Below, in pieces: positions 1 through 24,108 of a stretch of DNA of 64,000 nucleotides. This stretch comes from Stappia sp. (GTDB lineage: Bacteria > Pseudomonadota > Alphaproteobacteria > Rhizobiales > Stappiaceae): NCBI RefSeq assembly GCF_048261845.1, contig NZ_JBLXFR010000008.1, positions 17,150 to 81,149 of the forward strand, given 5' to 3'. The translations under genes and the position numbers were made by a program. Numbering within the stretch: the stretch's first letter is position 1; every line of letters begins with the position of its first letter. The notes beneath the pieces were generated by a model. It had not been told where the DNA came from. It did no database searches and worked only from the letters and a program-made list of their open reading frames with translations.

Positions 1-605
1 GTGGGCGCATAGTGGATGCGCACCGACGTGCCGTCGCACACAAACCGTAGTCCGTCGCCGCTCGCAGCTTCAAACATTGCCAAGGGCACCGGTTCGGCCG
101 CGAAAAACCAGCGGTCGCGGGGCTCCTCATACAGGTTCTGCACAGCCTTGCCGGCAAGCCGGTAGCGTCGGTAGCATGTCTCGGCCCCCGAACGCCCGCA
201 GGACCCGCCGTGAAGGACGGCAAGGAATGCGGCCTGCGAGGGACGGTCGAAGCGCAGGTCGTAAGCGAGGAACTCTGCCACCTTGTCATAGGAGCCGCCA
301 TCGCGCTGGACGTAGAGGTTTTGCGTGCAGCCGGCGGAACCGCAAAACATCATCTGCGTGCCATCGCATTTCAGCAGGCCGTAATCCGTCAGCACGTCCG
401 GAAGAGCATCGCCGTTGACGTCGACCTCCTTGGCGAAACCGCCGAGAAACTCCAATTTCTGGCAACTCTCGGCAAGCGCGGCACGCTCCATGCCAAGCAC
501 GGCGGCCATATCAGCACGCGCGCCAGCCCCCATGATCAGGACAAGCGATGCCGCGGCAAACAGTTTCAGGCTTGTGGTCGAGATTGAATGACGGACGCTG
601 GCCAC
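1..605 (-). CDS. Secreted hypothetical protein, partial (runs off the left edge; absent from the ORF track)
   Basis: Hand translation from GTG at 605, preceded by GAGG: MASVRHSISTTSLKLFAAASLVLIMGAGARA-DMAAVLG... Signal-peptide-like N-terminus, DVNGDALPD and FCGSAGC motifs, open to position 1. Confidence 0.7.
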   Translation of the reverse strand, partial: MASVRHSISTTSLKLFAAASLVLIMGAGARADMAAVLGMERAALAESCQKLEFLGGFAKEVDVNGDALPDVLTDYGLLKCDGTQMMFCGSAGCTQNLYVQRDGGSYDKVAEFLAYDLRFDRPSQAAFLAVLHGGSCGRSGAETCYRRYRLAGKAVQNLYEEPRDRWFFAAEPVPLAMFEAASGDGLRFVCDGTSVRIHYAP

Positions 606-725
606 GAAAACCTCTTTTTCCAGAATGGATGATGCGATCAATCGCAACAGCGTAGCGGCGAGGCATGACACTGGCAACAAAGCCTCCATATCGCGGCGTG
701 AGCCAGCCAATCAGTCCGTGATTTT

Positions 726-753
726 TTATTCCATAATATATCTTATGCGAATT
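726..753 (-). other. dif: dif-like XerC/XerD recombination site, probably the chromosomal dif
   Basis: Minus strand reads AATTCGCATAA-GATATA-TTATGGAATAA, an 11-6-11 layout with CGCATAA/TTATG inner arms as in E. coli dif (GGTGCGCATAA-TGTATA-TTATGTTAAAT). Intergenic, with KOPS converging on it. Confidence 0.8.
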
Positions 754-880
754 TCACGTACGGCGTGCGGACGGAAGCCACCAAGGTCCGTTTCCGAGTC
801 CGAGTTTGTTTGATGATCCTGATTACATCGCGAAGGGGCGGAAAGGCCGGCAAAAGGTCGAAGCCGCTGAATGGTCGGTC

Positions 881-1270
881 CTATTCGGTTCGAAGTTGGC
901 TGAGCATTGGGCAAAGGACATTGCCCCGCGAGCAGTTTGAGATCAGCTGCTTCAGCGCGGTTTCAAGCTTCTTCAGTTCGGCGATTTTGGTTTCCACATT
1001 GGCGATATGAACTTCCGCCAGCTCCTTCACAGCCTCACAGTCCGAGGCCCGGTTCTCGGAAAGGTCCAGCAGCATCTTCGCTTCGGCAAGGGGGAAACCA
1101 AGATCGCGCAGCCTTTTCAGGAGGCGCAACCGGCCGACATCATCAGCCGTATAAAGCCGCCGATTGTTGGTTGCCCGCCCCGGTTCCGGAACAACCCCTT
1201 CCCGTTCGTAGTAGCGGATTGTCTCGATACCGACACCGCTCCGTTTCGATGCTTCTCCAATCGCGATCAT
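881..1270 (-). CDS. merR: MerR-family metal-responsive transcriptional regulator
   Basis: N-terminal IGEASKRSGVGIETIRYYER HTH; three Cys (DC, NC, LC) spaced like the Hg-binding triad of MerR; divergent from a merT-like gene. Confidence 0.85.
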   Translation of the reverse strand: MIAIGEASKRSGVGIETIRYYEREGVVPEPGRATNNRRLYTADDVGRLRLLKRLRDLGFPLAEAKMLLDLSENRASDCEAVKELAEVHIANVETKIAELKKLETALKQLISNCSRGNVLCPMLSQLRTE

Positions 1271-1285
1271 GTGATGTCATCCGGC

Positions 1286-1316
1286 TTGAGCCTGTAGTGA
1301 CTACAGGAAGTATGTC
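1286..1316 (+). promoter_or_regulatory. MerR-type promoter/operator
   Basis: TTGAGC (1286-1291), 19-bp spacer, TATGTC (1311-1316), with a perfect dyad CCTGTAGT-G-ACTACAGG (1291-1307). Same architecture as the Tn501 mer promoter. Confidence 0.85.
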
Positions 1317-1367
1317 TGCGGGCACCGAAAGTCACTACGCAATGCCGTGATGGGCCGGGAGATCGAG

Positions 1368-1691
1368 ATGCAGAAATTTTTGAGCCTGAGTTATCTGAGT
1401 TCGATTTCGGCGCTAGGGGTCGCGACCTGCTGCGTCCTACCGATGGCGATGATGTTGCTGGGACTGGGAGGAAGTTGGCTGGCGGTGTTCGGGAAGATCG
1501 CCGCTGCAAGCTACTACGTTCTTGCGATTTCTTCAGTCCTTTTGGCTGTGTCCTGGTTCCTCGCGTTTCGACGGCAGTCGCTTGCAAGGTTGAAGTGGTG
1601 GTTGTCGGGGAGCACGGCGATGACGGTTTTGGCCTGGGTTGTTGTCTTCAACGAGACCCGGATAAACGACTATCTGACTATGCGGATGTGA
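1368..1691 (+). CDS. MerT-like mercuric/heavy-metal transporter
   Basis: About 107 aa, three hydrophobic segments, ATCCVLP..LLGLGGSW resembling MerT TM1 (CC pair). GGAG RBS before ATG 1368; the ORF-track start is 1347. Confidence 0.7.
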   Translation: MQKFLSLSYLSSISALGVATCCVLPMAMMLLGLGGSWLAVFGKIAAASYYVLAISSVLLAVSWFLAFRRQSLARLKWWLSGSTAMTVLAWVVVFNETRINDYLTMRM

Positions 1692-1695
1692 GGCG

Positions 1696-1914
1696 ATGGC
1701 TGATCAAGAAGTAGTTTTGGAAAGCACACTGACTTGTCCCGTGTGCGGTCATGTTGAGACGGAAACCATGCCCACTGGTTCCTGCCAGTGGTTCTATGAG
1801 TGCAAGGCATGTCATGAAGTGCTGAAGCCCAAAGCAGGTGACTGCTGCGTTTTCTGTTCCTACGCGACGGTTCCCTGTCCGCCAATTCAACTGGGTAAAA
1901 CCCGTTGTAGCTGA
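1696..1914 (+). CDS. GDCCVxC-domain small Cys-rich protein
   Basis: 72 aa, 10 Cys: CPVC, CKAC, GDCCVFCSY, CPPIQ. Starts 4 nt after the merT-like stop. Confidence 0.85.
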   Translation: MADQEVVLESTLTCPVCGHVETETMPTGSCQWFYECKACHEVLKPKAGDCCVFCSYATVPCPPIQLGKTRCS

Positions 1915-2014
1915 AGTCGTCGCCCCTCCTCCCCGCAAGGCTTCCCGCCCTGCGATATGTGGGGTCTGCGGGCGGTCAGCCTTGCTCCTGCCCTGCCCGT
2001 TTCACCGCCCTGTT

Positions 2015-2065
2015 CGTGACCGTTCTGTCTGGCATAAATCGTGACCATTCTCGCTAGTGACAACA
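2015..2065. mobile_element. Possible orphan IS terminus (IS481/IS1202-like layout)
   Basis: Two imperfect direct repeats CGTGACC(G/A)TTCT 25 nt apart (2015, 2040), ending in ...GACAACA (TGTTGTC on the minus strand). No transposase in the window. Confidence 0.3.
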
Positions 2066-2120
2066 GCGCGTGTGGTCAGACAGGCGGACACATTAGGTGA
2101 GCGAGCCGGATCCGGCACGG

Positions 2121-2666
2121 TCACAGATCCTGTCCCTGACCCTGGATCCGCCGGAACATGTAGGTGGTCGCGTGCCGTGCCTGGCCGTCCGGGTCGAAGG
2201 CAAAGTCCGGAATCATCCCCGCTACTTCGAACCCGACGGAGGCGTAGAGCGGTTCGGCAACATCGCCGGTTCTCGTATCGAGCGTGACCAGGGTCTTGCC
2301 CAGTTCACGCGCGCGTTCGATCGCGCGGTTCATCAAGGCCCTGCCAATTCCGAGCCTTCGGGCTCCCGGATGAACAATCATCTTTGCGATCTCGCAGCGA
2401 TGCGGCTGATTGGGCGGCATGGCCGTGAGGAGCTGGACGGTTCCGACAGTCTCGCCACCGCGCTCGGCGCCGAAAACCACGCGGCGCCCTGCCTGCACTT
2501 CGGGCCGGACGTCCCGCAACCAGAACATGGCCGCGTCGTCATCGGACACGGGAGCCATGAAGCTGATTGCAGCTCCATCCGCCACACTCTCGATGAGGAT
2601 TTGCGACAGCGCCGCCAGCCGTCGTTCGATAGCGGGGCCGTCGAGTTCGATGATCTGCGTTTCCAT
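2121..2666 (-). CDS. GNAT N-acetyltransferase (Ttr-like)
   Basis: EIAKMIVHPGARRLGIGRALM acetyl-CoA motif, LVTLDT, LYASVGF; GAGG RBS before ATG 2666. Confidence 0.85.
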   Translation of the reverse strand: METQIIELDGPAIERRLAALSQILIESVADGAAISFMAPVSDDDAAMFWLRDVRPEVQAGRRVVFGAERGGETVGTVQLLTAMPPNQPHRCEIAKMIVHPGARRLGIGRALMNRAIERARELGKTLVTLDTRTGDVAEPLYASVGFEVAGMIPDFAFDPDGQARHATTYMFRRIQGQGQDL

Positions 2667-2677
2667 GTGTCGGACCC

Positions 2678-3238
2678 TCAAGCCAACGCAATGATGTAGC
2701 GAGCCGGCTGCTCTCCGGTCTCGAAGGACGAGGCGCCGAACAACCGGTAGCGCATGCAGTCCCCCGGACGCAGGTCATGGCGATCGCCGTCAATGGTGAG
2801 GGCAAGCGCGCCGGACAGCAGGACGAGGTGGTGTTCGTGCCCTGCGACAGCGGGTCGATCATAGGAAATGCGCTGGTTGGGAGCGATTTCGCACTCGATC
2901 ATTTCGAGCTTGAGCCGACCGCTGGGCGGCGACAGCGCACGGCGCGTGAAGCCGTTTTCGCGATCATGCCAGATCCCCTGCTCCGCATGCCGGACGAGCG
3001 GCGGAAAGTCCGGCTCAAGCGGCGAAAGCAGTTGGGAAAGCGGCAGACCGAAAGCCGAAGCCAGACGACCAAGCGTCTCCGCCGTCGGGCTGACGTCGCC
3101 GTTCTCGATGCGCGAGAGCGTGGCGCGACTGACCCCGCTGCTTTCCGCAAGATCCTGAAGGGTAAGATCGCGTCCCGTTCGCAGCAAACGGAGATGCTCG
3201 GCCAGGGCCTTGTGTCGCTGTGTATGGTCTTTGTCCAT
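2678..3238 (-). CDS. XRE-family transcriptional regulator with C-terminal cupin
   Basis: LTLQDLAESSGVSRATLSRIENG HTH; HEHHLVLLSGALAL..LRPGDC cupin. ATG 3238 preferred to the ORF-track start 3367. Confidence 0.88.
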   Translation of the reverse strand: MDKDHTQRHKALAEHLRLLRTGRDLTLQDLAESSGVSRATLSRIENGDVSPTAETLGRLASAFGLPLSQLLSPLEPDFPPLVRHAEQGIWHDRENGFTRRALSPPSGRLKLEMIECEIAPNQRISYDRPAVAGHEHHLVLLSGALALTIDGDRHDLRPGDCMRYRLFGASSFETGEQPARYIIALA

Positions 3239-3244
3239 ATGTGA

Positions 3245-3273
3245 GATATATTCCCAAATACGGACGGATACAA
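3245..3273 (-). promoter_or_regulatory. Putative sigma70 promoter giving a leaderless XRE mRNA
   Basis: Minus strand TTGTAT, 17 bp, TATATC, 6 nt, ATG(3238). No SD sequence. Overlaps the pseudo-palindrome TGAGA-TATAT-TCCCA. Confidence 0.5.
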
Positions 3274-3399
3274 CACTTTTTCGCCTCGGTGCCGCGGACC
3301 GGGAAACCGATGTCAGGTGTCCCTGCCCTGTGCGCCCTCTTGGCTCGGTCAAGGCAGCCCGGATCACCCGTGCGACCTTGGCACCTCCGCATGTCGAAC

Positions 3400-3429
3400 A
3401 AAAATGCCGGGAGATCCCTCTCCCGGCAT
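3400..3429 (-). terminator. Intrinsic terminator of the purine ABC operon
   Basis: ATGCCGGGAGA-TCCC-TCTCCCGGCAT 11-bp stem followed by a T-run on the minus strand. Confidence 0.75.
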
Positions 3430-3461
3430 GTCATTCGGCCGTGACGGCCCGGTTTTGTCGA

Positions 3462-3493
3462 CTGGCCGCCTCTTACTCTGGCCGCCTCTTACT
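3462..3493. repeat. 16-bp tandem duplication overlapping the BMP stop codon
   Basis: CTGGCCGCCTCTTACT x2 (3462-3477, 3478-3493). Confidence 0.85.
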
Positions 3494-4556
3494 GCGGCAG
3501 CTTGTCGTCGATGCCCTTGACGTACCAGTTCATGCCGAGCAGGACGCCGTCATCGAGGATGATGCCTTCGCCGACAGCTTCAGAGCCGTCCTGCTTGAAG
3601 ATCGGGCCGGTGAACGGGTGGAATTCGCCGGAGCGGATCTTCTCCTGCGTTTCCGCTGCCGCCTTGGCGACATCTTCCGGCAGGTTGGTGTACGGCGCCA
3701 TCAGAACCATTTCGGCAGCCAGGCCGCCCCAGACGTCCTCGCTCTTCCAGGTGCCGTCGAGAACCGCCTTGACGCGACCCTTGTAGTAGACGCTCCAGTC
3801 GTCGACGATCGCGGTGAGCTGCGCCTTGGGCGCGAAGTTGATCATGTCGGAGGCCTGGCCGAAACCGATCGCGCCACGCTCTTCGGCAACCTGCAGCGGC
3901 GCCGGGCTGTCCGTGTGCTGGGCGATCACGTCGGCGCCCTGGTCGAGCAGAGCCTTGGCCGCATCCGCTTCCTTGCCCGGATCATACCAGGTGTTCACCC
4001 ACACGACCTTGACCTTGAAGTCCGGATTGACGGACTGCGCGCCGAGCATGAAGGAGTTGATGCCGCGCACGACTTCGGGGATCGGGAAGGAGGCGATGTA
4101 GCCGGCGGTGCCGGACTTCGACATCTTCGCGGCGATCTGGCCGATGATGTAGCGCCCCTCGTAGAAGCGGGCCGAATAGGTCGACAGGTTGTCGGCGCGC
4201 TTGTAGCCGGTGGCGTGCTCGAACTTCACGTCCGGGAACTTCTTGGCGACCTTGACGGTCGGGTTCATGAAGCCGAACGAGGTTGTGAAGATGAGCCCGG
4301 CACCGTCGCGGGCCAGACGCTCGATGGCGCGCTCCGCGTCCGGGCCTTCCGACACGTTCTCGATGTAAACCGTCTCCACCTGGTCGCCGAATTCTTCCTC
4401 GATCGCGAGTCGGCCCTGGTTGTGCTGGTACGACCAGCCGTGGTCGCCGATCGGGCCGACATAGATGAAGCCGATTTTCAGCTTGTCCGCGGCCTGGGCG
4501 CCAACGAGGCCCATGCCAAGCAGCGCTGCCGCCGCCAATCCAAGAACTTTCTTCAT
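3489..4556 (-). CDS. BMP-family ABC substrate-binding protein (purine/nucleoside)
   Basis: Signal peptide; KIGFIYVGPIGDHGWSYQH; GADVIAQHTDS; lies in the xdh operon. Confidence 0.92.
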   Translation of the reverse strand: MKKVLGLAAAALLGMGLVGAQAADKLKIGFIYVGPIGDHGWSYQHNQGRLAIEEEFGDQVETVYIENVSEGPDAERAIERLARDGAGLIFTTSFGFMNPTVKVAKKFPDVKFEHATGYKRADNLSTYSARFYEGRYIIGQIAAKMSKSGTAGYIASFPIPEVVRGINSFMLGAQSVNPDFKVKVVWVNTWYDPGKEADAAKALLDQGADVIAQHTDSPAPLQVAEERGAIGFGQASDMINFAPKAQLTAIVDDWSVYYKGRVKAVLDGTWKSEDVWGGLAAEMVLMAPYTNLPEDVAKAAAETQEKIRSGEFHPFTGPIFKQDGSEAVGEGIILDDGVLLGMNWYVKGIDDKLPQ

Positions 4557-4654
4557 TTCAAGCTCCTACGTCCCCTGTTTGAAGCCGACGCCGGTTGTCC
4601 CCCGACGGCTTTTTTGCGGTAGGGAGGCGTTCCCCCTGTCCGGCATTCCACGCA

Positions 4655-5575
4655 TCACCGGTCCGGCACGAAGGGCTTGCCAAGGCAGGCCGGCGTGTTG
4701 ATCCGGGTCAGGATACGGTTTCGCGATATGATGACAAGCACGGCGATCGTCGCAGCATAGGGCAAGGCGGACAGGAATTGCGAGGGAATGGCGACCCCGT
4801 GCGCCTGTGCGTGAAACTGCAGGATGCCGACGGCCCCGAAAAGATAGGCGCCGGCCAGCACGCGCAACGGACGCCATGTGGCGAAGACGACCAGCGCCAG
4901 CGCGATCCAGCCGCGTCCGGCCGTCATCCCCTCGATCCATTGCGGCGTGTAGGCAAGCGACAGGTAGCCCCCGGCAAGCCCAGCGCAGGCGCCGCCGAAG
5001 AGCACCGCGAGATAGCGCACCTTGAGCACGGAGACGCCGAGTGCATGGGCCGAACCGTGATTGTCGCCGACAGCGCGGATGACGAGGCCCGCGCGTGTGC
5101 GGAAGAGGACATATGTCACGCCCGCGACCAGCGCCAGCGACACATAGACCAGCAGGTCCTGCCCGAACACGATCCGCCCGATGACCGGAAGATCGCTGAG
5201 GCCCGGGATCGACAGAGCTTGCAGCTTGATCCCCGGCCGGCCGACGAACGCTTCGCCGATCATCCCTGACAGCCCCAATCCGAGCAGGGTCAGCGCCAGT
5301 CCTGTTGCCACCTGGTTGGCAACGAGATGCAGCGTCAGGAAGCCGAAAAGCAGTGCCATGCCCATGCCGGCAAGCAATGCGCACAGCGCTCCGACATAGG
5401 GCGAGCCGGTGGCCTGCGCCCCGGCGAAGCCCATCACCGCGCCGACGATCATCATGCCCTCGACACCGAGGTTGAGGACGCCCGAGCGCTCGACGACCAG
5501 TTCGCCGATGGCCGCAAGCAGCAGCGGCGTTGCCGCCGTGATGACTGTCAGAAGAATGGATTCGTAGGCTCCCAT
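4655..5575 (-). CDS. Nucleoside/purine ABC permease
   Basis: LLLAAIGELVVERSGVLNLGVEG; GRGWIALALV. Confidence 0.92.
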   Translation of the reverse strand: MGAYESILLTVITAATPLLLAAIGELVVERSGVLNLGVEGMMIVGAVMGFAGAQATGSPYVGALCALLAGMGMALLFGFLTLHLVANQVATGLALTLLGLGLSGMIGEAFVGRPGIKLQALSIPGLSDLPVIGRIVFGQDLLVYVSLALVAGVTYVLFRTRAGLVIRAVGDNHGSAHALGVSVLKVRYLAVLFGGACAGLAGGYLSLAYTPQWIEGMTAGRGWIALALVVFATWRPLRVLAGAYLFGAVGILQFHAQAHGVAIPSQFLSALPYAATIAVLVIISRNRILTRINTPACLGKPFVPDR

Positions 5576-5578
5576 GGA

Positions 5579-6647
5579 TCAGTTCCCCCTGCCCGTCGCC
5601 GCCGGCCGCCCCAACCGGACCCGGTACAGGATGAGCGTGTCGCAGGCGAGCACGTAGAAAAGCAGCATGCCCTGAAAGACGCGGGTGGTCTTGTCGGAGA
5701 TGCCCAGACCGACCTGCGCCGCCTCCCCGCCGAGATAGGACAGGGCCAGAAGGAAGCCGGAAAAGAAAATTCCGATCGGGTTGAGCCGGCCGAGAAATGC
5801 GACGATGATCGCGGTGAACCCGTAACCGGGCGAGACGATCGGCGTCAGCTGGTTCACGGAGCCGGAGACCTCGCTGATACCGGCAAGGCCGGCAAGGCCG
5901 CCGGCAAGCAGGAAGGCGAACCAGACCATCCGGTTCTGCGAGAAGCCGGCGAACCGGCCCGCCCTTGGAGCCTGGCCCAGAACCCTGATCTCGAAGCCCT
6001 TCAGCGACTTGAGCAGGACCACGGCGAGGACCAGAACGGCGATAACGGCGAAGATGGCCCCGACATGCATGCGCCCGTCGGCCAGCGCCGGCAGCGTTGC
6101 CGCTTCGGAGAAAACCCTGCTTTCGGGAAAGTTGAACCCGTCCGGGTCACGCCAGGGACCGCGCACCAGCCAGTCGAGCAGAAGCTGCGCGATATAGACC
6201 AGCATCAGGCTGGTCAGGATCTCGTTGGTGCCGAACCGCACTTTGAGAAAGGCCGGGATTGCTGCCCAGGCCATGCCCCCGGCAATGCCCATGACGAGCA
6301 TCAGGGGCAGCGTCAGGACGTTCTCGAAGGCGGGAAACATGATCGGCAGGATGCAGCCGACAATGGCGCCGAACGTGAATTGTCCTTCCGCGCCGATATT
6401 CCAGTTGTTCGACAGATAGCAGACCGCAAGGCCGACACCGATCAGGATCAGCGGAGTGGCCTTGACGACCAGTTCCTGCAAGGACCAGGACGCCGTCAGC
6501 GGTTCGATGAAGAACGTGTAGAGGGCAATGGCCGGGTTCTGCCCCAGCGCGGCGAACAGGATGCCTCCGGTGACAAGCGTCAGTGCAAGCGCGATCACCG
6601 GCGACAACAGTGCCATCAGGCTGGATCGTTCGGCGCGTTTTTCCAAC

Positions 6648-6658
<11 letters not shown>
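5579..6658 (-). CDS. Nucleoside/purine ABC permease
   Basis: WNIGAEGQ, GTNEILTSLML, GYGFTAIIVAFLGRLNP; ATG 6658 overlaps the ATPase stop. Confidence 0.92.
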
Positions 6659-8231
<1,573 letters not shown>

Positions 8232-8250
8232 CGCTCCCCCCGAGCCCTTG

Positions 8251-9276
8251 TCATACGGCCCTCAGTCCCCCGGCAAGCCTGCCATCGTCTTTGTTGTGGA
8301 AAGTCGCGGCCGCCTCCCGGCGGATCATCAGTTCGCCCACCACCGCAACGGCAATGGCGGCCGGCTCCTTCGATGTTATCCCGGCGATGCCGATCGGGCA
8401 GCGAAAGCGCGCAAGCGCGTCCTCGCCATGGCCGGCAGCGCGCAACCTGGAGCGCATCCGGGCCGCCTTGGTGCGGCTGCCGATCATGCCGACCCCGCGA
8501 ACGCCTGCCTGATGCAGGGCCGCATCGGCGATGGCAAGGTCGATCGCGTGATCGTGGGTCATGATCAGCACCTCGGCTCCGCCCGGAGGGAGAAGGCCCC
8601 AGCCTTCGGGCCCGCCGGACAGCGTGGATGGCGGATCGGGGTGATGGATGGATACGACATTCGCCGGCGCACGGCCGGGAAACGCCTCCGCGCGGCTGTC
8701 GATCCAACTGATCCTGAATGGCAGCGGCGCGAGCGCGAGAACAAGGGCGCGGCCGACATGACCCGCCCCGAACAGCAGGAGGGAGGTCGCCGGCGCGTCG
8801 AAGCGCTCGAACAACAGGGATCCCGAAAGATCCAGCGCTGGCCCGCCGGCATCGTCCCCCGACAGGATTTCGCGCGGCCCGACCGTCCCGTCAGCGGCGA
8901 TCCGGGCGCGGGTCGCGAGCCCCCCCGACCGCGCCGCCGCTGCAATCCGCTCCACTTCGTTCTGGCGGGCTGAACTGAAGCTCTCCACCGCGAGCGTCAC
9001 GCGCCCGCCGCAGCATTGACCAAGGTCGGGACCGAGCGAGAACCCGCGCAGCGTGAGCCGGTCATCGGCAGCCCGTGCGCATTGCCGTGCAAGGGCGATG
9101 GCCTCGAATTCCAGCGTTCCCCCGCCGATCGTCCCGTGGAACGAACCGTCGGGCGCGACCACCATGCGCGCGCCCGCCTCGCGCGGACCGGATCCTTCAA
9201 GCGCCAGGACACTGACCATGGCGCATGTGCCGTGGCGCCCCAGCAATTCGGCAACAGCGCTCCACGGTTCCCTCAT
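8251..9276 (-). CDS. xdhC: Xanthine dehydrogenase accessory protein XdhC
   Basis: GSGPREAGARM, GTIGGGTLE, DLGQCCGG, FGAGHVG, MIGSRTK, CPIGI. Confidence 0.93.
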   Translation of the reverse strand: MREPWSAVAELLGRHGTCAMVSVLALEGSGPREAGARMVVAPDGSFHGTIGGGTLEFEAIALARQCARAADDRLTLRGFSLGPDLGQCCGGRVTLAVESFSSARQNEVERIAAAARSGGLATRARIAADGTVGPREILSGDDAGGPALDLSGSLLFERFDAPATSLLLFGAGHVGRALVLALAPLPFRISWIDSRAEAFPGRAPANVVSIHHPDPPSTLSGGPEGWGLLPPGGAEVLIMTHDHAIDLAIADAALHQAGVRGVGMIGSRTKAARMRSRLRAAGHGEDALARFRCPIGIAGITSKEPAAIAVAVVGELMIRREAAATFHNKDDGRLAGGLRAV

Positions 9277-11612
9277 GCGCGCCCCCTGCTCCGCTTCATG
9301 AGGGAAACGGCCTTGAGGATCTGTTCCGGTGTCGCCGGAGCATCAAGCTCCGGCACCGCGCCGGGATTGAGGCTCGCCACCGCATCGTGGATGGCGCTGA
9401 ACACGGAGATTGCCAGCATCACCGGGGGCTCGCCCACCGCCTTGGAGCGATAGACGGTCGGCGACGGATTGCCGCTTGAACCGAACAGCTCGACACGGAA
9501 ATCCTCCGGCACGTCGGAGGCCGTCGGGATCTTGTAGGTCGAAGGTGCATGGGTGCGCAGCCGTCCGGCATCGTCCCAGACGAGCTCCTCGGTCGTCAGC
9601 CAGCCCATCCCTTGCACGAAACCTCCCTCGATCTGGCCGATGTCGATGGCCGGATTGAGGGAATGGCCGACATCGTGAAGGATGTCGACCCGGTCGACGC
9701 GCATTTCTCCGGTCATCGTGTCGATGGTGACCTCGGAACAGGCCGCGCCATAGGCGAAGTAGAAGAACGGCTGGCCGGAAGCGCTCGGCCGGTCCCAGGT
9801 GATGCCCGGCGTCGCATAGAACCCCGTGGCGGAAAGCTGGATCCGCGCCATGTGGGCCTCGCGCGCGAGCTGGCCGAGGGAGACGGTTTCCTCGCCGATA
9901 CGCACGGCATTGTCCTGGAAGGCGACGGCATCGGGCTCGACCTGGAAGCGCTCGCAAGCGAAGGCAACCAGCCGCGCCTTGATCTTTTCCGCGGCGATCC
10001 TTGCGGCCATGCCGTTGAGATCCGTGCCGGAGGACGCTGCCGTCGGGCCGGTATTCGGCACCTTGCCGGTATGGGTGGCGGTGATCTTCACACGGTCGAG
10101 CGACACGCCGAACTCCTCGGCGACGACCTGGGCGACCTTCTGGAACAGCCCCTGCCCCATCTCGGTGCCGCCGTGGTTCAGATGGATCGAACCGTCGGTG
10201 TAAAGATGCACCAGCGCACCGGCCTGGTTGAGATGCTTGAGCGTGAAGGAGATGCCGAACTTCACCGGCGTCAGGGCGAGGCCCTTCTTGAGGATCGGGC
10301 TCGCTGCATTGAAGGCGGCGATGCTCTCCCGCCTTGCCCGGTAGTCCGAGCTTTCCTCCAGCTGGTCGACAACGGCATGCAGGGTGGCATGCTCCTCCAC
10401 CTTCATGCCGAAGGGCGTGACATCACGTCCCTCGCCGTAGAAATTCCGCTTGCGGATATCGAGCGGGTCAATACCGAGACGGATCGCGAGCGTGTCCATC
10501 ATCAACTCGGCCGCAAGCATCCCCTGCGGCCCGCCAAACCCGCGAAAGGCGGTGTTCGAACAGGTGTTGGTCTTCAGCCTGCGCGAATGGATCAGGGCAT
10601 CGGGATAGTAGTAGCTGGAGTCGGCGTGGAACATCGCCCGGTCGACGACGCCGAGCGACAGATCGGCGGAATACCCGCAGCGGGCGAAGAAGCGCATGTC
10701 GATGGCACGCACCAGGCCGTTCTCGTCATGTCCGAGAATCCAGTCGGCACGGAAATCGTGCCGCTTGCCGGTCATGATCATGTCGTCGTCACGGTCGAGA
10801 CGCATCTTGCAGGGATGCCCGCTCACCCGCGCCGCGACGGCAGCGATCCCGGCCCAGTGATTGGCCTGGGACTCCTTGCCGCCGAAGCCGCCGCCCATGC
10901 GCCGCACCTCGACGGTGACCGCCGCATCCGGAACGCCGAGCACGCGCGCGATCACGTGCTGCGTCTCGCTCGGATGCTGCGACGAGGTATGCACGAACAT
11001 GTCGCCGTCCTCGCCCGGCACCGCCAGCGAGACCTGCCCTTCCAGATAGAAGTGCTCCTGCCCGCCGATCCGCATCGACCCTTCCAGTCGCTGGCGCGCG
11101 GTGGCCAGTCCGGTCTCCGGAGACCCCTTGCGGAACTGGTAGTCCGGCAGGACGGTCGTATCCGCCGAAACGGCGTCCTCCACAGTCAGCACCGGGGCAA
11201 GCGCCTCGATCTCGAACCGTGCCTTGCGCTCCGCGTGGCGGGCTGCCTCGCGGGTGGTGGCAATGACCGCGAAGACCGGCTGCCCCCAGAACGAAATCTC
11301 TTCGTCGGCGAACATCGGCTCGTCGCCTAGCGCCGGCGAAACGTCATTCTTGCCGGGCACATCGGCGCTGGTGAGAACCGCGACGACGCCGGGAGCAGCA
11401 CGCACTGCGTCCAGGTCGAGCGAGACGATCCTGCCTCTTGTCGCGTCACGTGCCCATCCCGGCACCACATGCAAGGTGCCGGCCGGCTCGCGAATGTCAT
11501 CGACATAGACGGCCTCGCCGGTGACATGGCGTGCGGCGCTGTCATGCGGCGACGGCTGGCGCACCTGCCGAAGCCCGCTCTCTGCCGCACCGGTGTGGTC
11601 TTCAAGCCGCAT
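9273..11612 (-). CDS. xdhB: Xanthine dehydrogenase molybdopterin-binding subunit
   Basis: HDSAARHVTG, GGQEHFYLEG, RRMGGGFGGKE, AFRGFGGPQG, SKAVGEPP. ATG 11612 has a GGAGA RBS (ORF-track start 11630). Confidence 0.95.
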   Translation of the reverse strand: MRLEDHTGAAESGLRQVRQPSPHDSAARHVTGEAVYVDDIREPAGTLHVVPGWARDATRGRIVSLDLDAVRAAPGVVAVLTSADVPGKNDVSPALGDEPMFADEEISFWGQPVFAVIATTREAARHAERKARFEIEALAPVLTVEDAVSADTTVLPDYQFRKGSPETGLATARQRLEGSMRIGGQEHFYLEGQVSLAVPGEDGDMFVHTSSQHPSETQHVIARVLGVPDAAVTVEVRRMGGGFGGKESQANHWAGIAAVAARVSGHPCKMRLDRDDDMIMTGKRHDFRADWILGHDENGLVRAIDMRFFARCGYSADLSLGVVDRAMFHADSSYYYPDALIHSRRLKTNTCSNTAFRGFGGPQGMLAAELMMDTLAIRLGIDPLDIRKRNFYGEGRDVTPFGMKVEEHATLHAVVDQLEESSDYRARRESIAAFNAASPILKKGLALTPVKFGISFTLKHLNQAGALVHLYTDGSIHLNHGGTEMGQGLFQKVAQVVAEEFGVSLDRVKITATHTGKVPNTGPTAASSGTDLNGMAARIAAEKIKARLVAFACERFQVEPDAVAFQDNAVRIGEETVSLGQLAREAHMARIQLSATGFYATPGITWDRPSASGQPFFYFAYGAACSEVTIDTMTGEMRVDRVDILHDVGHSLNPAIDIGQIEGGFVQGMGWLTTEELVWDDAGRLRTHAPSTYKIPTASDVPEDFRVELFGSSGNPSPTVYRSKAVGEPPVMLAISVFSAIHDAVASLNPGAVPELDAPATPEQILKAVSLMKRSRGRA

Positions 11613-13086
11613 TGCTTGTCTCTCCGCCACGCAAACCGGTCACCCGCGTCCTCTCGTCCGGCGTTCCGCCGATTTCCACCAGTGACTTTGCGAGCAAGGC
11701 GCGTGCCACCTCCCGGCGATACGCGTCGCTGGCGCGCATGTCGCTGATCGGATCGAAATCGTCTCCGAGCGCCTTCAGCGCCGCCGCCCAGCTCGACGGC
11801 TGGTCGGGCCGCGCCCCGATCAGCGCCAGCTCAGCTTTTGCCGCACGCCGGGGCGTGGCCGCCATGCCGCCAAATGCAAGGCGCGCGTCCGTCACGATTC
11901 CGTCGGCGAGCGTCAGGCGCAGCGCGCAAAGCACAGCCGTGATGTCCTGGTCGAAGCGCTTGGATATCTTGAAGCAGCGAAACGCATGATTGGGATCAAG
12001 GCGTGGCACGTAGAGACCGGTAACGATCTCGCCGGGCGCCCTGTCCTGCTTGCCGTAATCGATGAAGAAATCCTCAAGCGCCACCGTGCGCGAGGCCGCC
12101 CCCTTGCGCAGTTCCAGCGTCGCACCGAGCGCAATCAGCGCCGGCGGGCTGTCGCCGATGGGCGAACCGTTGGCGATATTGCCGCAGACCGTTCCGGAGG
12201 CCCGCACCTGCCGGGATCCGATCCTCCGCCACAACTCGCCGAGATCCGGATCGATCCGCGCCATGAAGGCGTGCGTGTCCGAGAACGTCGCACCGGCCCC
12301 CATCAGCACGCCGCCGGACGTTTCCTCGACCTTTTCGAAATCGCGTACCCGCCCGAGCCAGATCACCTGCGGCAGGTCGCGAAGCTGTTTGGTCACCCAG
12401 AGCCCGACATCGGTGGCACCGGCAACGATGGTGGCCTGGGGATGCGCCTCGCAAAGTGCCGCCAGGGCGTCGAGAGAGGCCGGCGCTGCGAAGAACCGCT
12501 GTTCGTCGCCGAGCCACAGGTCGTGCGGGTCCCCGGCCATCTCCAGAAGCGCGGCCGTCGTCTCCTCCGCGCGGCGCGAAAACGCATCGTCCGCCACCTG
12601 GAAACAGGCCTCCATCGCAGCGTCGACAATCGGGCGATACCCCGTGCAACGGCACAGGTTGCCGGCCAGCCAGTCGGTGACCGTCTTGCGCGTCGGTTGT
12701 GCATCGGGGGCGTGATACAAGGTGAAAAGGCTCATGATGAAGCCGGGCGTACAGAACCCGCATTGCGACCCGTGGCAGTCGACCATGGCCTGCTGCACCG
12801 GGTGCAGACGCCCGTCCTGAGCGAGGTCCTCCACGGTGACCAGTTCCGCGCCGTCCAGCATGCCGAGAAACTGGATGCAGGAATTGACCGGCTGATAGAC
12901 GAGCCGGCCCTCGACCAACCGGCCGATGGCGACCGTGCAGGCCCCGCAATCGCCTTCGCCGCACCCTTCCTTGGTACCCACGAGACCCCGCCGCAGACGC
13001 AGATAGTCGAGCACCGTTTCGGTGGGTCGCACATCGGCGAGTTCGACGATCTGACCCTTGTGCAGGAAGCGGAGTTGCCGGCGCAT
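11602..13086 (-). CDS. xdhA: Xanthine dehydrogenase small (2Fe-2S/FAD) subunit
   Basis: GTKEGCGEGDCGAC, QCGFCTPG, NLCRCTGY, AGATDVGL, KISKRFDQD. Confidence 0.95.
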   Translation of the reverse strand: MRRQLRFLHKGQIVELADVRPTETVLDYLRLRRGLVGTKEGCGEGDCGACTVAIGRLVEGRLVYQPVNSCIQFLGMLDGAELVTVEDLAQDGRLHPVQQAMVDCHGSQCGFCTPGFIMSLFTLYHAPDAQPTRKTVTDWLAGNLCRCTGYRPIVDAAMEACFQVADDAFSRRAEETTAALLEMAGDPHDLWLGDEQRFFAAPASLDALAALCEAHPQATIVAGATDVGLWVTKQLRDLPQVIWLGRVRDFEKVEETSGGVLMGAGATFSDTHAFMARIDPDLGELWRRIGSRQVRASGTVCGNIANGSPIGDSPPALIALGATLELRKGAASRTVALEDFFIDYGKQDRAPGEIVTGLYVPRLDPNHAFRCFKISKRFDQDITAVLCALRLTLADGIVTDARLAFGGMAATPRRAAKAELALIGARPDQPSSWAAALKALGDDFDPISDMRASDAYRREVARALLAKSLVEIGGTPDERTRVTGLRGGETSNAA

Positions 13087-13089
13087 CGC

Positions 13090-13452
13090 CTAGCTCCCCC
13101 TGTAGGTGGAATAGCCGAAGGGCGAGAGCAGCAGGGGCACGTGGTAATGCGCGGCGGCGTCGGCGATCCCGAAGCGCAGCGGAACGACATCGAGGAACGG
13201 CGGATCGGGCAGCTTGGCCCCCGAAGTGGCCAGATAGGCGCCTGCCTCGAACCTGAGCTCGTAAATGCCTGTCACGAAGGCATTGCCTTCCAGCAGCGGG
13301 GCATCGACACGGCCATCGGCATTGGTGACGGCCCGGGCAATGCAGCTGAACGCCTCGTCGTCCGCTCCCTCGGCCTTCCACAGCGAGAGGGCAAGGCCGG
13401 CTGCGGGCTTGCCAAGCGCGGTGTCGAGAACATGCGTGGTCAGTCGTCCCAT
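13090..13452 (-). CDS. uraH: 5-hydroxyisourate hydrolase (transthyretin-like)
   Basis: [27 protein letters not shown]-terminal signature. Confidence 0.95.
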
Positions 13453-13581
13453 CGTCCCATTCCGTATCTGTTCGGCGTCGCGCGCCGGGGTCCGGTCAAG
13501 TCTGAACCATGACCGTCGCTTGGGCACGCCTTGAAAGAGTGCAACAGCATTGTGACAGCGACCAGAACAGATTCGCGCGCC

Positions 13582-14523
13582 CTAAGATGCCGTTTCGGCA
13601 TCGATATGTGAAAGGCGTTCTCTCAATGCGGTCACGGAATGGTCAAAGAACGCATGTGCCGCATGGCTGAGCCCGCGATGCGACGACGTCAGCACCGTGA
13701 ACCGGTCCCGTTGCAGCGGCGGATCGCGCAGGGGCAGGAAGACAAGCGATCCGTCGGCAAGCTCGCGCTCCAGCCCCAGAATGGTCTGGAAGATGACGGC
13801 ATCGTCGGCAATGGCAAGGGCTTTCATCAGCTTCAGCGAGTTCGCCTCGACAAAGGCTCCCAGGCCGAGCGGCTGGTCGGCAAGCACCAGGTCTATCCGC
13901 TTGCGCAGCGACAGTCCGGGCGACGGCAGGCAGAAGGGATAGGCCAGGCACTCGGCAAGGCTCGGCCGGTGCGTACCCGTCAGCGGATGGCCGGGACGAA
14001 CCACGGCGCCGATCGCAAGATCGCGGTGAAAGGCGATGTCGAGACGCGGGTCCTCCGGCGGCTCGAAGGTGAAACCGACATCGGTCTCGCCGGCGATGAC
14101 CGCTTGCGCCACCTGCTCGGAACCGGTGAGCCGGACGGTGATATGAATGCCCGGGAACTTGCGCCGGAACGCCGCGATGACCCCGGGCAACAGGCTTTCC
14201 GCCACGCTTTCAACGCTTGTGACATGCACGCCGCCGCGCTGCATGCCGGTCAGGGCGTCGAGATCGCCGGCGGTGGCATCGAAATCCGACAGGGTGCGAA
14301 GCACATGGGCGCGCAGGATCTCGCCTGCCGGTGTCAGCCGGACGCCCCGTGCCACCCGGTCGAAAAGCGCATGTCCGAGGGTTTCCTCAAGCCAGAGGAT
14401 CTGCCGGTTGACGGCGCTCGAGGCGACGTTGAGTTCGCGCGCCGCGGCGCGAATGGATCCGGATGCGGCCACTGCCGCGAAATAGCGAAGCGCAGGACCA
14501 TAGAGATGACGCGCACGATCCAT
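13582..14523 (-). CDS. LysR-family transcriptional regulator
   Basis: LRYFAAVAASGSIRAAARELNVASSAVNRQI HTH; directly upstream of uraH-xdh. Confidence 0.92.
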   Translation of the reverse strand: MDRARHLYGPALRYFAAVAASGSIRAAARELNVASSAVNRQILWLEETLGHALFDRVARGVRLTPAGEILRAHVLRTLSDFDATAGDLDALTGMQRGGVHVTSVESVAESLLPGVIAAFRRKFPGIHITVRLTGSEQVAQAVIAGETDVGFTFEPPEDPRLDIAFHRDLAIGAVVRPGHPLTGTHRPSLAECLAYPFCLPSPGLSLRKRIDLVLADQPLGLGAFVEANSLKLMKALAIADDAVIFQTILGLERELADGSLVFLPLRDPPLQRDRFTVLTSSHRGLSHAAHAFFDHSVTALRERLSHIDAETAS

Positions 14524-14540
14524 GGCCTGCCGTCCGGTTG

Positions 14541-14582
14541 CACCGGGAGAGGAACCGCTTGAAAGCGGCTCCTCTCCCGGTG
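14541..14582 (-). other. Long RNA hairpin between qor and the LysR gene
   Basis: CACCGGGAGAGGAACCGCT-TGAA-AGCGGCTCCTCTCCCGGTG, a 19-bp stem whose one mismatch is a G.U pair on the minus strand. No U-tract. Confidence 0.7.
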
Positions 14583-14587
14583 TGTGT

Positions 14588-15565
14588 TCAGGGAACGAAA
14601 ACCGTCGTGCCCGTGGTCTTGCGGCCCTGAAGATCCTGGTGGGCACGCACGGCATCGGAGAGCGCGTATTCCTGGTTCACCTGGATCTTCACATCGCCCG
14701 AGCGAACGACGTCGAAGAGGTCGTTGGCCGTCTCCTCGAGGTCTGCGCGCGTGGCGATATAGGAAAAGAGCGTCGGACGGGTCGCGAAGAGCGAGCCTTT
14801 CGGGCCGAGCAAGCCGAGATTGAAATCGGTGATGGGGCCCGACGACTGGCCGAACGAAACCCACAGGCCGAGCGGCCGCAGGCAGTCGAGCGAGCCGGGA
14901 TAGGTGTCCTTGCCGACGGAATCATAGACGACGTCGCAAAGCTTGCCGCCGGTGATCTCGCGCACCCGCTCGACGAAATTCTCGCTCCGGTAGTTGATCA
15001 CATGAGTGTAGCCGTTGGCCCGGGCGAGCTCAGCCTTTTCCTCGGACCCGACCGTTCCGATCACCGTTGCGCCGAGCTTCGCCGCCCACTGGCCGGCGAT
15101 CAGGCCGACGCCGCCCGCCGCCGCGTGGAACAGCAGCGTCGTGTCCGAGGTGACGTTGAAAGTCCGTCGCAAGAGATAGCGCGCGGTCATGCCCTTCAGC
15201 ATCATGCCGGCGGCCGTCTTGTCGTCGACCCCTTCCGGGATCCTGACCAGCCTGTCGGCCGGCACCAGCCGCTCCTCGGCATAGGATCCGAGCGGGCCGA
15301 CATAAGCAACCCGGTCGCCGGGCGCGACATGGGTGACGCCTTCGCCAACGGCCAGGACCTCGCCCGCCCCCTCGTTGCCGGGAATGAACGGCGTGCCTGC
15401 AGGCGCCGGATAGAGGCCGGAGCGGAAGTAGGTGTCGATGAAGTTCAGGCCGATCGCCGTGTGGCGGACGCGCGCCTCGCCCGCTGCCGGCGCCCCGACC
15501 TCGATTTCCTCCCAGCGCATGACCTCGGGTCCGCCGGTCTCGTGAACCCTGATTGCGTGAACCAT
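14588..15565 (-). CDS. qor: NADPH:quinone oxidoreductase (zeta-crystallin family)
   Basis: AIGLNFIDTYFRSGLY, HAAAGGVG, VVYDSVGKDT, RKTTG. Confidence 0.92.
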   Translation of the reverse strand: MVHAIRVHETGGPEVMRWEEIEVGAPAAGEARVRHTAIGLNFIDTYFRSGLYPAPAGTPFIPGNEGAGEVLAVGEGVTHVAPGDRVAYVGPLGSYAEERLVPADRLVRIPEGVDDKTAAGMMLKGMTARYLLRRTFNVTSDTTLLFHAAAGGVGLIAGQWAAKLGATVIGTVGSEEKAELARANGYTHVINYRSENFVERVREITGGKLCDVVYDSVGKDTYPGSLDCLRPLGLWVSFGQSSGPITDFNLGLLGPKGSLFATRPTLFSYIATRADLEETANDLFDVVRSGDVKIQVNQEYALSDAVRAHQDLQGRKTTGTTVFVP

Positions 15566-15646
15566 TTCCTGTGCTCCCATCGGGACTTGTTGTCGAACTG
15601 GACGGGATCATGGGGTTGCCGGGAGGTGCCGGCAACCCTTTTCGCG

Positions 15647-16369
15647 TTACTGGTGTTTCGCCCGGCGGCGACGCGACGCCAGGATGTTGATGATCTCGAC
15701 ACCGGCCGAGAAGGCCATGGCGAAGTAGATGTAGCCGCGCGGGATGTGGAAGCCGAGACCGTCCGCCACCAGCGCAACGCCGATCAGAAGCAGGAAGGCC
15801 AGCGCCAGCATCTTGGTCGTCGGATGTTTCTGGACGAAGGCAGAGATCGGCCCGGAAGCCAGGTACATCGCAATCATCGAGATGATCACGGCCGCGACCA
15901 TCACCTCGATATGCTCGGCCATGCCGATCGCCGTGACGATGGAATCGACCGAGAACACCATGTCGATGACGATGATCTGGGCAATCACCGCGCCGAAGCT
16001 CGCCACCGCCGCCGATCCGCCCGCATCGTGGCCGCCCTCGATGCCCTGGTGAATCTCGTGGGTGCCCTTGACGATCAGGAACAGGCCGCCGGCAAGCAGG
16101 ATCAGGTCGCGCCAGGAGATGTCTTCTCCGAAAACGATAAAGACCGGCGCGGTCAGGCCGATCAGCACCGTCAGGATGGACAAGAGCGCGATGCGGAAGA
16201 TCAGGGCCAGCGCCAGACCGATCTGGCGGGCACGCTTGGCCTGCTGCGGGTCGAGCCGGCTGACCAGTACCGAAATGAAGATGATGTTGTCGATGCCGAG
16301 CACGATCTCCATGACCGTCAGGGTCAGGAGGCTTGCCCAGACAGCCGGATCATTCAGCAGTTCGATCAT
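15647..16369 (-). CDS. TerC-family membrane protein
   Basis: MEIVLGIDNIIFI, DMVFSVDSIVTA, HPTTKMLALAFL, RGYIYFAMAFS. Confidence 0.92.
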   Translation of the reverse strand: MIELLNDPAVWASLLTLTVMEIVLGIDNIIFISVLVSRLDPQQAKRARQIGLALALIFRIALLSILTVLIGLTAPVFIVFGEDISWRDLILLAGGLFLIVKGTHEIHQGIEGGHDAGGSAAVASFGAVIAQIIVIDMVFSVDSIVTAIGMAEHIEVMVAAVIISMIAMYLASGPISAFVQKHPTTKMLALAFLLLIGVALVADGLGFHIPRGYIYFAMAFSAGVEIINILASRRRRAKHQ

Positions 16370-16464
16370 GCCGGGTCCTCGTCTTGCAAGGGGCGGCATC
16401 GGGGGAAAGGAGCGCCGCCCTCACCTCCTCATGACAAATGCCCGGACGGAATCCAAGTGGGAAT

Positions 16465-17196
16465 TCAGGCCCCGCGCAGGGCTCCAAGGCCCTGCTGCAC
16501 GGCGGACACGCAGAGCAGGTAGACGCTGGAAACGGCGAGCGCCCACTTGGCGATGCCTTCCGCCGACATGCCGTTGGCGATGGCGAACCCTGCCGCGACA
16601 AACCACACGAGCGTCATGGCCAGCGTCAGGATGCGCCACTTCACGACGCGCACCGGATGGATGAAGCGGATCGGGGCAAATGTCAGTGCGCAAAGCGCGA
16701 CCACGAAGATCACCGTGAACACCTGCGACGACGACAGCACCATCAGGCCGAAGACGACCATGTTCCAGCCGGCCGGGAACCCCTTGAAGGAGCCGTCCGG
16801 CTGCTTCATGCCGTTGTCGGCGAAGTACAGCGCACCGGTGAACACGACGAGGCCGCCGCAGATCCAGTTCCAGGGCGTCGACAGCATGTCACTGGCGGCA
16901 AGGGCGAAAGCCGGCAGGAAGACATAGGTGGCGTAGTCGATGACGAAATCCAGCGAGGCGCCGGACCATTGCGGCATGCGCCTGGCGATATCGAAACGGC
17001 GCGCCAGGGGGCCGTCGATGCCGTCGATGACGAGCGCAATGCCGAGCCAGACGAAAAGCATGCTCCAGTCGCCCCGCGATCCGGCCAGCAGGGCGAGCAA
17101 CGCGATGGGAGCGCCTAGCGCGGTCAGGACATGAATGAGAAACAGCGGATGGGCGCTTTTGAGCCGTTCCGCGACGCCTGCGTCGATATCCGCCAT
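16465..17196 (-). CDS. pcs: Phosphatidylcholine synthase (CDP-alcohol phosphotransferase)
   Basis: HVLTALGA, IDGIDGPLAR, LDFVIDYATYV, FKGFPAGWN. Start uncertain (17196 or 17274). Confidence 0.85.
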   Translation of the reverse strand: MADIDAGVAERLKSAHPLFLIHVLTALGAPIALLALLAGSRGDWSMLFVWLGIALVIDGIDGPLARRFDIARRMPQWSGASLDFVIDYATYVFLPAFALAASDMLSTPWNWICGGLVVFTGALYFADNGMKQPDGSFKGFPAGWNMVVFGLMVLSSSQVFTVIFVVALCALTFAPIRFIHPVRVVKWRILTLAMTLVWFVAAGFAIANGMSAEGIAKWALAVSSVYLLCVSAVQQGLGALRGA

Positions 17197-17357
17197 CTTG
17201 CCCTTTGCCACAGGCCTTGCCTCGCGAAATGGTTCGCGTCGTCGATCCGACGAGACGAGAGAAACATCTCCCAAACTCTTCCTATGCCTTCATGTGCGCC
17301 AGACTGCAACACAACTGACATGGAATTGTCGCAAATGATCTTGCGCCGACGGCCTGC

Positions 17358-18305: not shown

Positions 18306-18492
18306 GTACGCTTCTCCGTTTCCGCGTTTCGGCCCCGCGCAAGGCACGCGGTCACAGGTAGCAAAGGAGGTGCATCCGTTCATCCGCGTCCTTGCGGATG
18401 CGACCAATCGCGCATGTCCCGAGCTTGCAAATCCGCGCCGGACAGTCATCTTCCACACGAGAGAGTATGCAGATCCGCCGAGGGAGCCGGCA

Positions 18493-19746: not shown

Positions 19747-19757
19747 TCAGCAGCCGT

Positions 19758-20840: not shown

Positions 20841-20866
20841 GCAGCTCCCTCTTCTGCCAAGGCTGT

Positions 20867-21820: not shown

Positions 21821-22010
21821 CGGGGTCTCCGGCGGACACGAGGAGGTGTCCGCATGCGGCCGGCATGTTGCCAAGCCCGGGCCGCTTGGTTAATCACCGC
21901 AGGCCTAGCGGGTTCGCAAAGACCGGTCAACGGCAGCGAAGGGAACTTTGGAATGACGCGGAGCGGCGACAGCTTGCGATGAGACGGCAACCTCAAACCC
22001 GGTCGGGCAG

Positions 22011-22886: not shown

Positions 22887-22958
22887 CCGGCGCGCGGGCG
22901 GACAACACGGCCCCGGACATATCTCCTGCTTGAATGCCGCAGCGCGAATGTATTTATA

Positions 22959-22970
22959 TGCATTGCAGCA
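22959..22970 (+). promoter_or_regulatory. PhaR/AniA-like operator upstream of the CoA lyase
   Basis: TGCATTGCAGCA fits TGCRNYGCASMA, the rhizobial PhaR consensus as I recall it. Lies in an AT-rich promoter region. Confidence 0.5.
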
Positions 22971-22993
22971 TAAATGTTCGGGAGGAACAGGAC

Positions 22994-24037: not shown

Positions 24038-24108
24038 GTCCGTGTGCAGTGCCGGTCCCGGCAACCGTCGCGACTTGTAAACTGAACGTTGAGGGCGTAT
24101 GCGCTAGT

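Follow-up and report, generated by a model that had tools for sequence, protein, structure and literature searches.

The window analysed here is a stretch of 64,000 nucleotides at positions 17150-81149 of contig C8 in the draft genome of Stappia sp., an assembly of 132 contigs and 4.58 Mb with 65% G+C that is 92% complete. Close to its left edge, a short intergenic element stands between a conserved hypothetical gene, for which we did not find a family match, and a small group of genes with a metal-response character (Table 1). The plus strand at 726-753 reads TTATTCCATAATATATCTTATGCGAATT, the reverse complement of which is exactly AATTCGCATAA GATATA TTATGGAATAA; the minus-strand 28-mer pointed out in the sequence-only reading of this DNA, which took it for the chromosomal dif, is therefore present letter for letter. 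The start of the 338-aa ORF on its left, at 710, is 16 bp away, and on its right the merR-family gene has its stop at 881, a distance of 128 bp; on contig C8 the site occupies 17875-17902.

Table 1. Features at and around the dif site (window coordinates; IS, insertion sequence)
Feature	Position	Strand	Remarks
Conserved hypothetical gene, 338 aa in full	1..710	minus	Left neighbour of dif; truncated by the left edge of the window
dif, 28-bp XerCD site	726..753	minus	Exact and unique, conserved, KOPS flip; matches published Rhizobiales predictions
XerD arm TTATGGAATAA	736-726	minus	Assigned by analogy with E. coli dif
dif central region GATATA	742-737	minus	6 bp
XerC arm AATTCGCATAA	753-743	minus	Assigned by analogy with E. 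coli dif
Gap of nine bases between XerC arm and IS homology	754..762		May hold the 5-bp spacer of IS1202-family insertions
Remnant, 3' end of IS1202-family (NCBIfam ISNCY_2) transposase gene	763..880	plus	Alignment to NZ_CP045633.1
MerR-family metal-responsive regulator, IS cargo	881..1270	minus	
Weak MerT-like membrane protein, IS cargo	1347..1691	plus	
GDCCVxC-domain small cysteine-rich protein, IS cargo	1696..1914	plus	NF041374, 102 bits
Conserved IS right end	1924..2065	plus	Ends ...GTGACAACA (ACA-3', ACA at 2065); subterminal repeats 2014-2026 and 2039-2051
Right junction GCGCG/TGTGGT	2066..2076	plus	IS-free relatives: dif, NNNNN, TGTGG...
Run of GGGNAGGG octamers	1196..58762	minus	15 in the window span, 18 on the contig, 0 on the plus strand; point towards dif
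First KOPS octamers right of dif	1196, 1991, 3321, 5587, 7300, 7982, 10150	minus	

A dif site consists of an 11-bp XerC arm, a 6-bp spacer and an 11-bp XerD arm. The 28-mer has this architecture, with two arms of 11 bp, a centre of 6 bp and the inner palindrome CATAA / TTATG. Its uniqueness, which the sequence-only reading had proposed to check, is borne out: fuzzy matching across the whole 4.58-Mb draft found no second place resembling it at up to eight mismatches, and a position matrix made from 17 Stappiaceae sites scored it at 59.6 bits and the runner-up of the genome at 11.8 bits. No match at up to three mismatches occurred in 100 shuffled versions of the window. The site is single-copy in the draft and likewise in each of 16 relatives of the same genus, single-contig genomes included. 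One copy of the core was found per genome in 16 of the 16 Stappia genomes searched; in 13 of these there is exactly one copy of the 28-mer at up to three mismatches, and the remaining three have one copy of the core.

The orientation of the site and its chromosomal slot are constant in all 16 genomes. On its left are housekeeping genes in the order rlpA (rlpA-like), dacC (D-Ala-D-Ala carboxypeptidase), tmk, holB, metG, tatD, a gene for an MBL-fold hydrolase and a recX-like gene; on its right is a Bmp/PnrA-type ABC transporter. This synteny was established at the protein level because the flanks are too diverged in DNA. Similarity ends at the edges of the 28-mer, the flanks being unalignable even among congeners, and a DNA comparison of the flanks (±1.5 kb) across relatives found almost nothing shared except the 28-mer itself. 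Judged from these alignments, a conserved 28-mer in unalignable flanks is the pattern that a short element under strong selection would be expected to leave.

For about 107 kb, and on either side of dif, contig C8 runs collinear at 86-91% identity with the genome of a relative (G016) assembled as a single contig of 4,932,864 bp. This makes the site chromosomal and most of the window core genome. The collinearity is broken only by small islets, one of which is the region around dif at window positions 477-3477. To the left of the window, at C8 1776-4150, a 2.4-kb islet carries genes for a Na+/H+ exchanger and a LysE-type exporter, and G016 is without it at this place. Gene content beside dif varies between Stappia species on both sides, with the recX-like and Bmp anchors fixed (±4 kb, loci L012-L024). 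The variable genes encode a PAS-GGDEF protein, M20 peptidases, GNAT enzymes, an SH3 protein, a DUF3291 protein, a Dabb protein and an alpha/beta hydrolase. No recombinase, integrase or phage gene was found among ten dif-flanking ORFs of relatives scanned against Pfam.

Outside the genus, a scan of species-representative genomes with a 22-nt core gave single matches in many Hyphomicrobiales, including Methylobacterium, Microvirga, Mesorhizobium, Bartonella, Devosia, Agrobacterium and Hyphomicrobium, and in some Rhodospirillales; across many Hyphomicrobiales the core occurs once per matching contig. Sites of this kind had been predicted by Kono et al. (2011), whose predicted dif of Mesorhizobium loti MAFF303099 is AAGTCGCATAAGATAGATTATGGAACTT, with similar sites in Agrobacterium radiobacter K84 chromosome I and in Bartonella (PMC3025954, Table S1). 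These Hyphomicrobiales sites share with the Stappia site the 11-6-11 layout, an identical core (TCGCATAA, GATA, ATTATGGAA) and their occurrence as one per chromosome near the skew shift point. The M. loti and Stappia sites match at 23 of 28 positions; the outer three bases of the XerD arm are TAA in Stappia and CTT in M. loti, and one central base also differs. The catalogued sites are themselves predictions, and the catalogue includes no Stappiaceae genome (it has no 'Labrenzia' entry).

The E. coli dif, GGTGCGCATAA TGTATA TTATGTTAAAT, has the same architecture and inner palindrome as the Stappia site, and in both organisms copies of GGGNAGGG converge on it. The two sites agree at 19 of 28 positions, including CGCATAA, TATA and TTATG. 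Most of the nine differences fall in the outer bases of the arms or in the first two bases of the centre.

In alphaproteobacteria hemE is a marker of the origin region. Since the 132 contigs of the draft are unordered, the position of the terminus and the whole-genome skew were taken from relatives. In three of these, each with dif and hemE on one contig of 4.7-4.9 Mb, the distance between the two is close to half of the contig: 2,512,122 bp or 50.9% in G016, 51.6% in G009 and 49.8% in G010. The GC skew of G016 turns from negative to positive exactly at hemE, remains positive as far as about 3.10 Mb and, after a flat stretch that reaches about 3.22 Mb, is negative from dif (3,225,806) onward. 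As a result of the flat zone of about 110 kb beside dif, the cumulative skew maximum falls at the far end of that zone, 112 kb (2.3% of the chromosome) from dif, an offset that is inside, but at the outer edge of, the proteobacterial range given by Kono et al. (PMC3025954). In a member of another genus of the same family (G022), the sign of the skew changes at dif itself. On contig C8 the skew is negative to the right of dif and near zero across the 17.9 kb to its left. The skew inversion expected of the site is thus found in relatives, in G022 at dif and in G016 with a zone that ends there, although the G016 maximum itself stands away from it.

To find the polar octamers of the Stappia genome, we oriented its contigs by skew, leaving out C8, and ranked all octamers by strand bias. 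The most strand-skewed octamer is GGGCAGGG, with 246 occurrences on the leading strand versus 46 on the lagging strand. It corresponds to GGGNAGGG, the KOPS consensus of E. coli. In G016, within 200 kb on either side of dif, GGGCAGGG occurs 25 times on the plus strand and 0 times on the minus strand to the left, and 3 and 25 times, respectively, to the right (Fisher p 4e-12). Over the same range GGGNAGGG gives 38 plus and 1 minus to the left and 4 plus and 42 minus to the right (p 2e-18), its last plus-strand copy lying 3 kb before dif and its first minus-strand copy 2 kb after. Within ±100 kb, the counts of GGGNAGGG are 19+/1- on the left and 3+/24- on the right in G009 (p 4e-9), and 17+/1- and 0+/20- in G022 (p 6e-10). 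Over the whole of contig C8 they are 2+/1- and 0+/18- (p 0.014), the three motifs in the 17.9 kb left of dif being too few to judge polarity there; the nearest right-side motif is 443 bp from dif. KOPS convergence is the sharpest test of the dif reading, and the motifs do converge.

KOPS polarity is also uniform throughout the near-zero-skew zone (about 3.10-3.22 Mb) that abuts dif on one side in G016. Two of the octamers in the window, at 1196-1203 within the merR-family gene and at 1991-1998 within the IS right end, lie inside acquired DNA, both in the permissive orientation.

Only two tyrosine recombinases were detected in the Stappia genome with the Pfam model. One, encoded at C3:103864-104808, is XerD: its TIGR02225 score of 338.7 bits clears the cut-off, and in its alignment to E. 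coli XerD (1A0P; E = 1.5e-66) the R, HxxR, H and Y motifs are conserved. The other, encoded at C21:13492-14550, is a XerC-like paralogue that retains the same motifs when aligned to XerD; its best family is XerC, but its 303 bits are under the NCBIfam cut-off of 335, so that XerC is identified by best family match only. The genome also encodes an FtsK with a gamma domain, the part of the protein that reads KOPS.

By analogy with the E. coli and Caulobacter paradigm, homologous recombination that joins sister chromosomes would produce a dimer, and septal FtsK would pump the DNA in the direction set by GGGNAGGG until it reached dif. There XerC would be bound to AATTCGCATAA and XerD to TTATGGAATAA. 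FtsK would then activate XerD, and strand exchange by both recombinases over the 6-bp GATATA would resolve the dimer. What is said here of binding, of which recombinase takes which arm and of catalysis at dif is carried over from these better-known systems. The 28-mer itself is almost certainly an ordinary chromosomal XerC/XerD dimer-resolution site at the replication terminus of the Stappia chromosome. The proposal that this is the chromosomal dif has accordingly held up, given a unique site on a contig collinear with the chromosome of a relative and, in relatives, a distance from hemE of about 50% of the contig, a change of skew in the zone that ends at the site and a flip of KOPS polarity on it.

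Only about 1.3 kb of the window, from about 754 to 2065, departs from the genus pattern. This islet has a G+C content of 54-58% versus 63-66% around it, and its MerT-like gene is in none of the 16 Stappia genomes. The homology of the islet to known elements starts 9-10 bp from the XerC arm with the transposase remnant, which aligns with the last ~110 bp of a transposase gene on the Roseibium aggregatum plasmid NZ_CP045633.1, where an intact element spans about 27.8-30.5 kb. The left IS end and about 1.3 kb of the transposase gene are missing, and no left inverted repeat is recognisable at 754-762. Between the divergent merR-family and merT-like genes, at about 1292-1306, is a palindrome distinct from dif, CTGTAGTGACTACAG, which is the likely MerR-type operator.

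Window positions 800-2065 are 91.6-91.9% identical to two Roseibium aggregatum plasmids, on both of which a gene for an ISNCY family transposase is followed by the same three cargo genes. The right end of about 140 bp (1924-2065) recurs on other Roseibium plasmids together with the same kind of transposase and different passenger genes, and all copies diverge straight after ...GTGACAACA. An end shared behind differing cargo, with divergence at this point, identifies 1924-2065 as the right end of a transporter IS. The intact Roseibium transposase matches NF033594 with 483 bits and shares 46-47% identity with ISKpn21-family transposases and about 46% with Acinetobacter ISNCY transposases. The model match and the 46-47% identity place the element in the IS1202 family of Harmer, Pong and Hall. 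A search for intact transposases in the Stappia genome and 40 relatives found one above the cut-off, in another genus (G021); in the draft and the 16 Stappia genomes there was no ISNCY_2 transposase above the cut-off.

Members of the IS1202 family insert in a single orientation, at a distance of 5 bp from the XerC arm of a dif or pdif site, and have TGT...ACA ends and 5-bp duplications (PMC10132070). Their transposases are 25-60% identical, and their imperfect terminal inverted repeats of 24-26 bp are accompanied by a second, internal copy of the binding site, with duplications of 3-5 bp overall (PMC10132070). Among them are the 'dif hunter' elements ISAjo2, ISAba71, ISKpn21, tISRel10 and ISMex6 (Harmer, Pong and Hall 2023, PMC10132070). 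The intact relatives from Roseibium and other Stappiaceae share with this family a transposase of 457-467 aa, with 46-47% identity to the ISKpn21 type, 5'-TGT...ACA-3' ends, imperfect inverted repeats of ~25 bp, a repeated subterminal motif, a left end 5 bp from a XerC arm, a 5-bp target duplication and passenger genes.

Three intact Stappiaceae copies have their left end next to a dif-like site, 5 bp away from its XerC arm. At locus L215 the order is ATGTTCCATAA TAACTA TTACGCGATTT, then TTGAT, then TGTAGC...; at L217 it is ATGTTCCATAA TCCAAA TTACGCGATTC, then TCGCT, then TGTAGC..., with TCGCT again after the right end as a perfect 5-bp duplication; and at L218 (contig C3 of G021) it is AAGTTCCATAA GATAAA TTATGCGAATA, then GACGA, then TGTAGC.... 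The islet in the window has the orientation expected of dif-adjacent IS1202-family copies. A fourth copy, L216, has no adjoining dif-like site. This copy (positions 560-3200 of the L216 locus on NZ_CP045634.1) is a related IS with another passenger gene, and its right flank, TCGCTTATA, is common to the L217 copy, which suggests, from the matching flanks, recombination between IS copies. The region immediately upstream of the dif-like site and IS at L215 (positions 890-3072 of this locus on NZ_CP045633.1) carries a CBASS phospholipase/nucleotidyltransferase pair together with a toxin-antitoxin gene. The 120-kb Labrenzia/Roseibium plasmids and many large plasmids of Bradyrhizobium, Agrobacterium, Rhizobium and Sinorhizobium have dif-like sites with 87-93% identity to the 28-mer, and these are probably the dimer-resolution sites of their replicons.

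The islet most likely reached this place by dif-targeted transposition of an IS1202-family element. It is probably the leftover of a transporter IS of this family that was inserted 5 bp from the XerC arm and afterwards lost its left end and its transposase gene. Loss of the transposase gene would have left the merR-family, merT-like and GDCCVxC cargo fixed next to dif. The sequence of the right junction agrees with, but does not prove, an insertion originally made at 5 bp from the XerC arm. The five bases next to dif, TCACG, and those after the right end, GCGCG, agree at three of five positions. The sequence-only reading had also suggested that the accessory DNA neighbouring dif was acquired at or near it; this applies to the 1.3-kb islet, but the remaining window is core chromosome.

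In the published family the cargo of a transporter IS is one ORF of unknown function, as against the three-gene metal-response unit found here (PMC10132070). The window copy also differs from the published transporter IS in being a remnant with neither left end nor transposase, and its host family, Stappiaceae, is absent from that study (PMC10132070).

Attempts to fix the insertion point by aligning the spacer between the islet and the following GNAT gene with the spacer between dif and GNAT in relatives failed because the spacers are too diverged. An apparent spacer match, GCGATATGTGG, is due to chance, since it is located inside the IS end. Comparisons of the ends of the islet gave only short, chance-level matches for bounding direct or inverted repeats.

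In 13 of 16 related genomes, positions +6 to +8 beyond the XerC arm hold TGT, TGC or TAT, and several of these genomes have TGTGG. The same holds for a genome of another family (L027), despite an otherwise unalignable flank, and TGTGG is also found at window 2071-2075, after the IS right end and 5 bp. TGTGG in this position could belong to a longer dif region or mark old IS scars. In most relatives a TGT follows the XerC arm after 5 bp; when this was considered as the left end of another IS or a miniature element (MITE), no inverted partner was found within 8 kb.

Other origins can be considered for both the islet and the 28-mer. The islet might instead be an IMEX integrated by XerCD, with the 28-mer as one of its junction sites. 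Like the IMEX elements CTXphi, TLCphi and the gonococcal genetic island, it is foreign DNA that abuts dif, here at the XerC arm, and has no recombinase of its own; its low G+C content and its absence from all 16 genus relatives would suit such an origin as well. An element integrated by XerCD is, however, bounded by two dif-like sites, whereas the islet has one site and transposon ends. Neither a second dif-like site, sought in the whole draft by fuzzy matching at up to eight mismatches and by the matrix, nor flanking repeats were found, the next best site falling at 11.8 bits against 59.6. The right end of the islet is recognisably that of an IS, a remnant of a DDE transposase gene is present, and the intact elements related to it, of the IS1202 family, insert beside and not into dif-like sites. 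We therefore regard an IMEX as very improbable. A different history of the IS, in which it was inserted elsewhere and a later deletion extended towards dif, may also apply: there is no left inverted repeat, the two 5-bp copies are alike at only three positions, and the spacer from the islet to the GNAT gene is shorter in the window than in relatives, in five of which this gene lies ~150-190 bp from dif.

As for the 28-mer, with 132 contigs and 92% completeness the main dif could in principle lie in an unassembled part of the genome, and the site described here would then be a pdif of a plasmid or chromid, or a secondary dif-like site, of the kind present on the large Rhizobiales and the 120-kb Labrenzia/Roseibium plasmids. 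Such a site would hardly be expected amid the housekeeping genes holB, metG and tatD on a contig collinear for ~107 kb with the G016 chromosome, and in single-contig genomes the orthologous site is the sole copy, opposite hemE and with KOPS converging on it; this explanation is even less probable than an IMEX. The 28-mer is AT-rich, partly palindromic and intergenic, with a merR-family gene 128 bp away, and might thus be thought a chance palindrome or an operator for an unrelated protein such as the neighbouring MerR-type regulator. It is, however, conserved base for base in genomes that have no such merR gene, a likelier MerR operator is the palindrome at ~1292-1306, and the chance expectation is nil, so that the probability of this explanation is negligible.

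The chromosomal dif is a well-known kind of feature, and the remnant of a dif-hunting IS beside it is only a mildly unusual aspect of the locus. The site is a routine landmark that fixes the replication terminus of the draft and orients contig C8, and it indicates that the standard XerCD/FtsK/KOPS system, with the GGGCAGGG octamer, is the one used by the Stappiaceae. The IS remnant links the dif hunting of the IS1202 family (PMC10132070) to alphaproteobacterial chromosomes. It also supports an idea left open in that study, namely that the unusual targets described for the rhizobial members are true dif sites following a consensus specific to their clade, and it indicates that a metal-response cargo of several genes can be brought to the terminus by elements of this kind. 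We suggest tentatively, at somewhat less than even chance, that in Hyphomicrobiales the chromosomal dif, with XerC bound to it, serves transporter IS of this family as a landing pad, so that the terminus is loaded with cargo that outlasts the transposase. If so, the loosely pdif-like targets of ISMex6, ISRel10 and ISRel26 would be genuine dif sites that follow the clade's own consensus, and such insertions would account for some of the turnover in gene content found right next to dif in all Stappia genomes.
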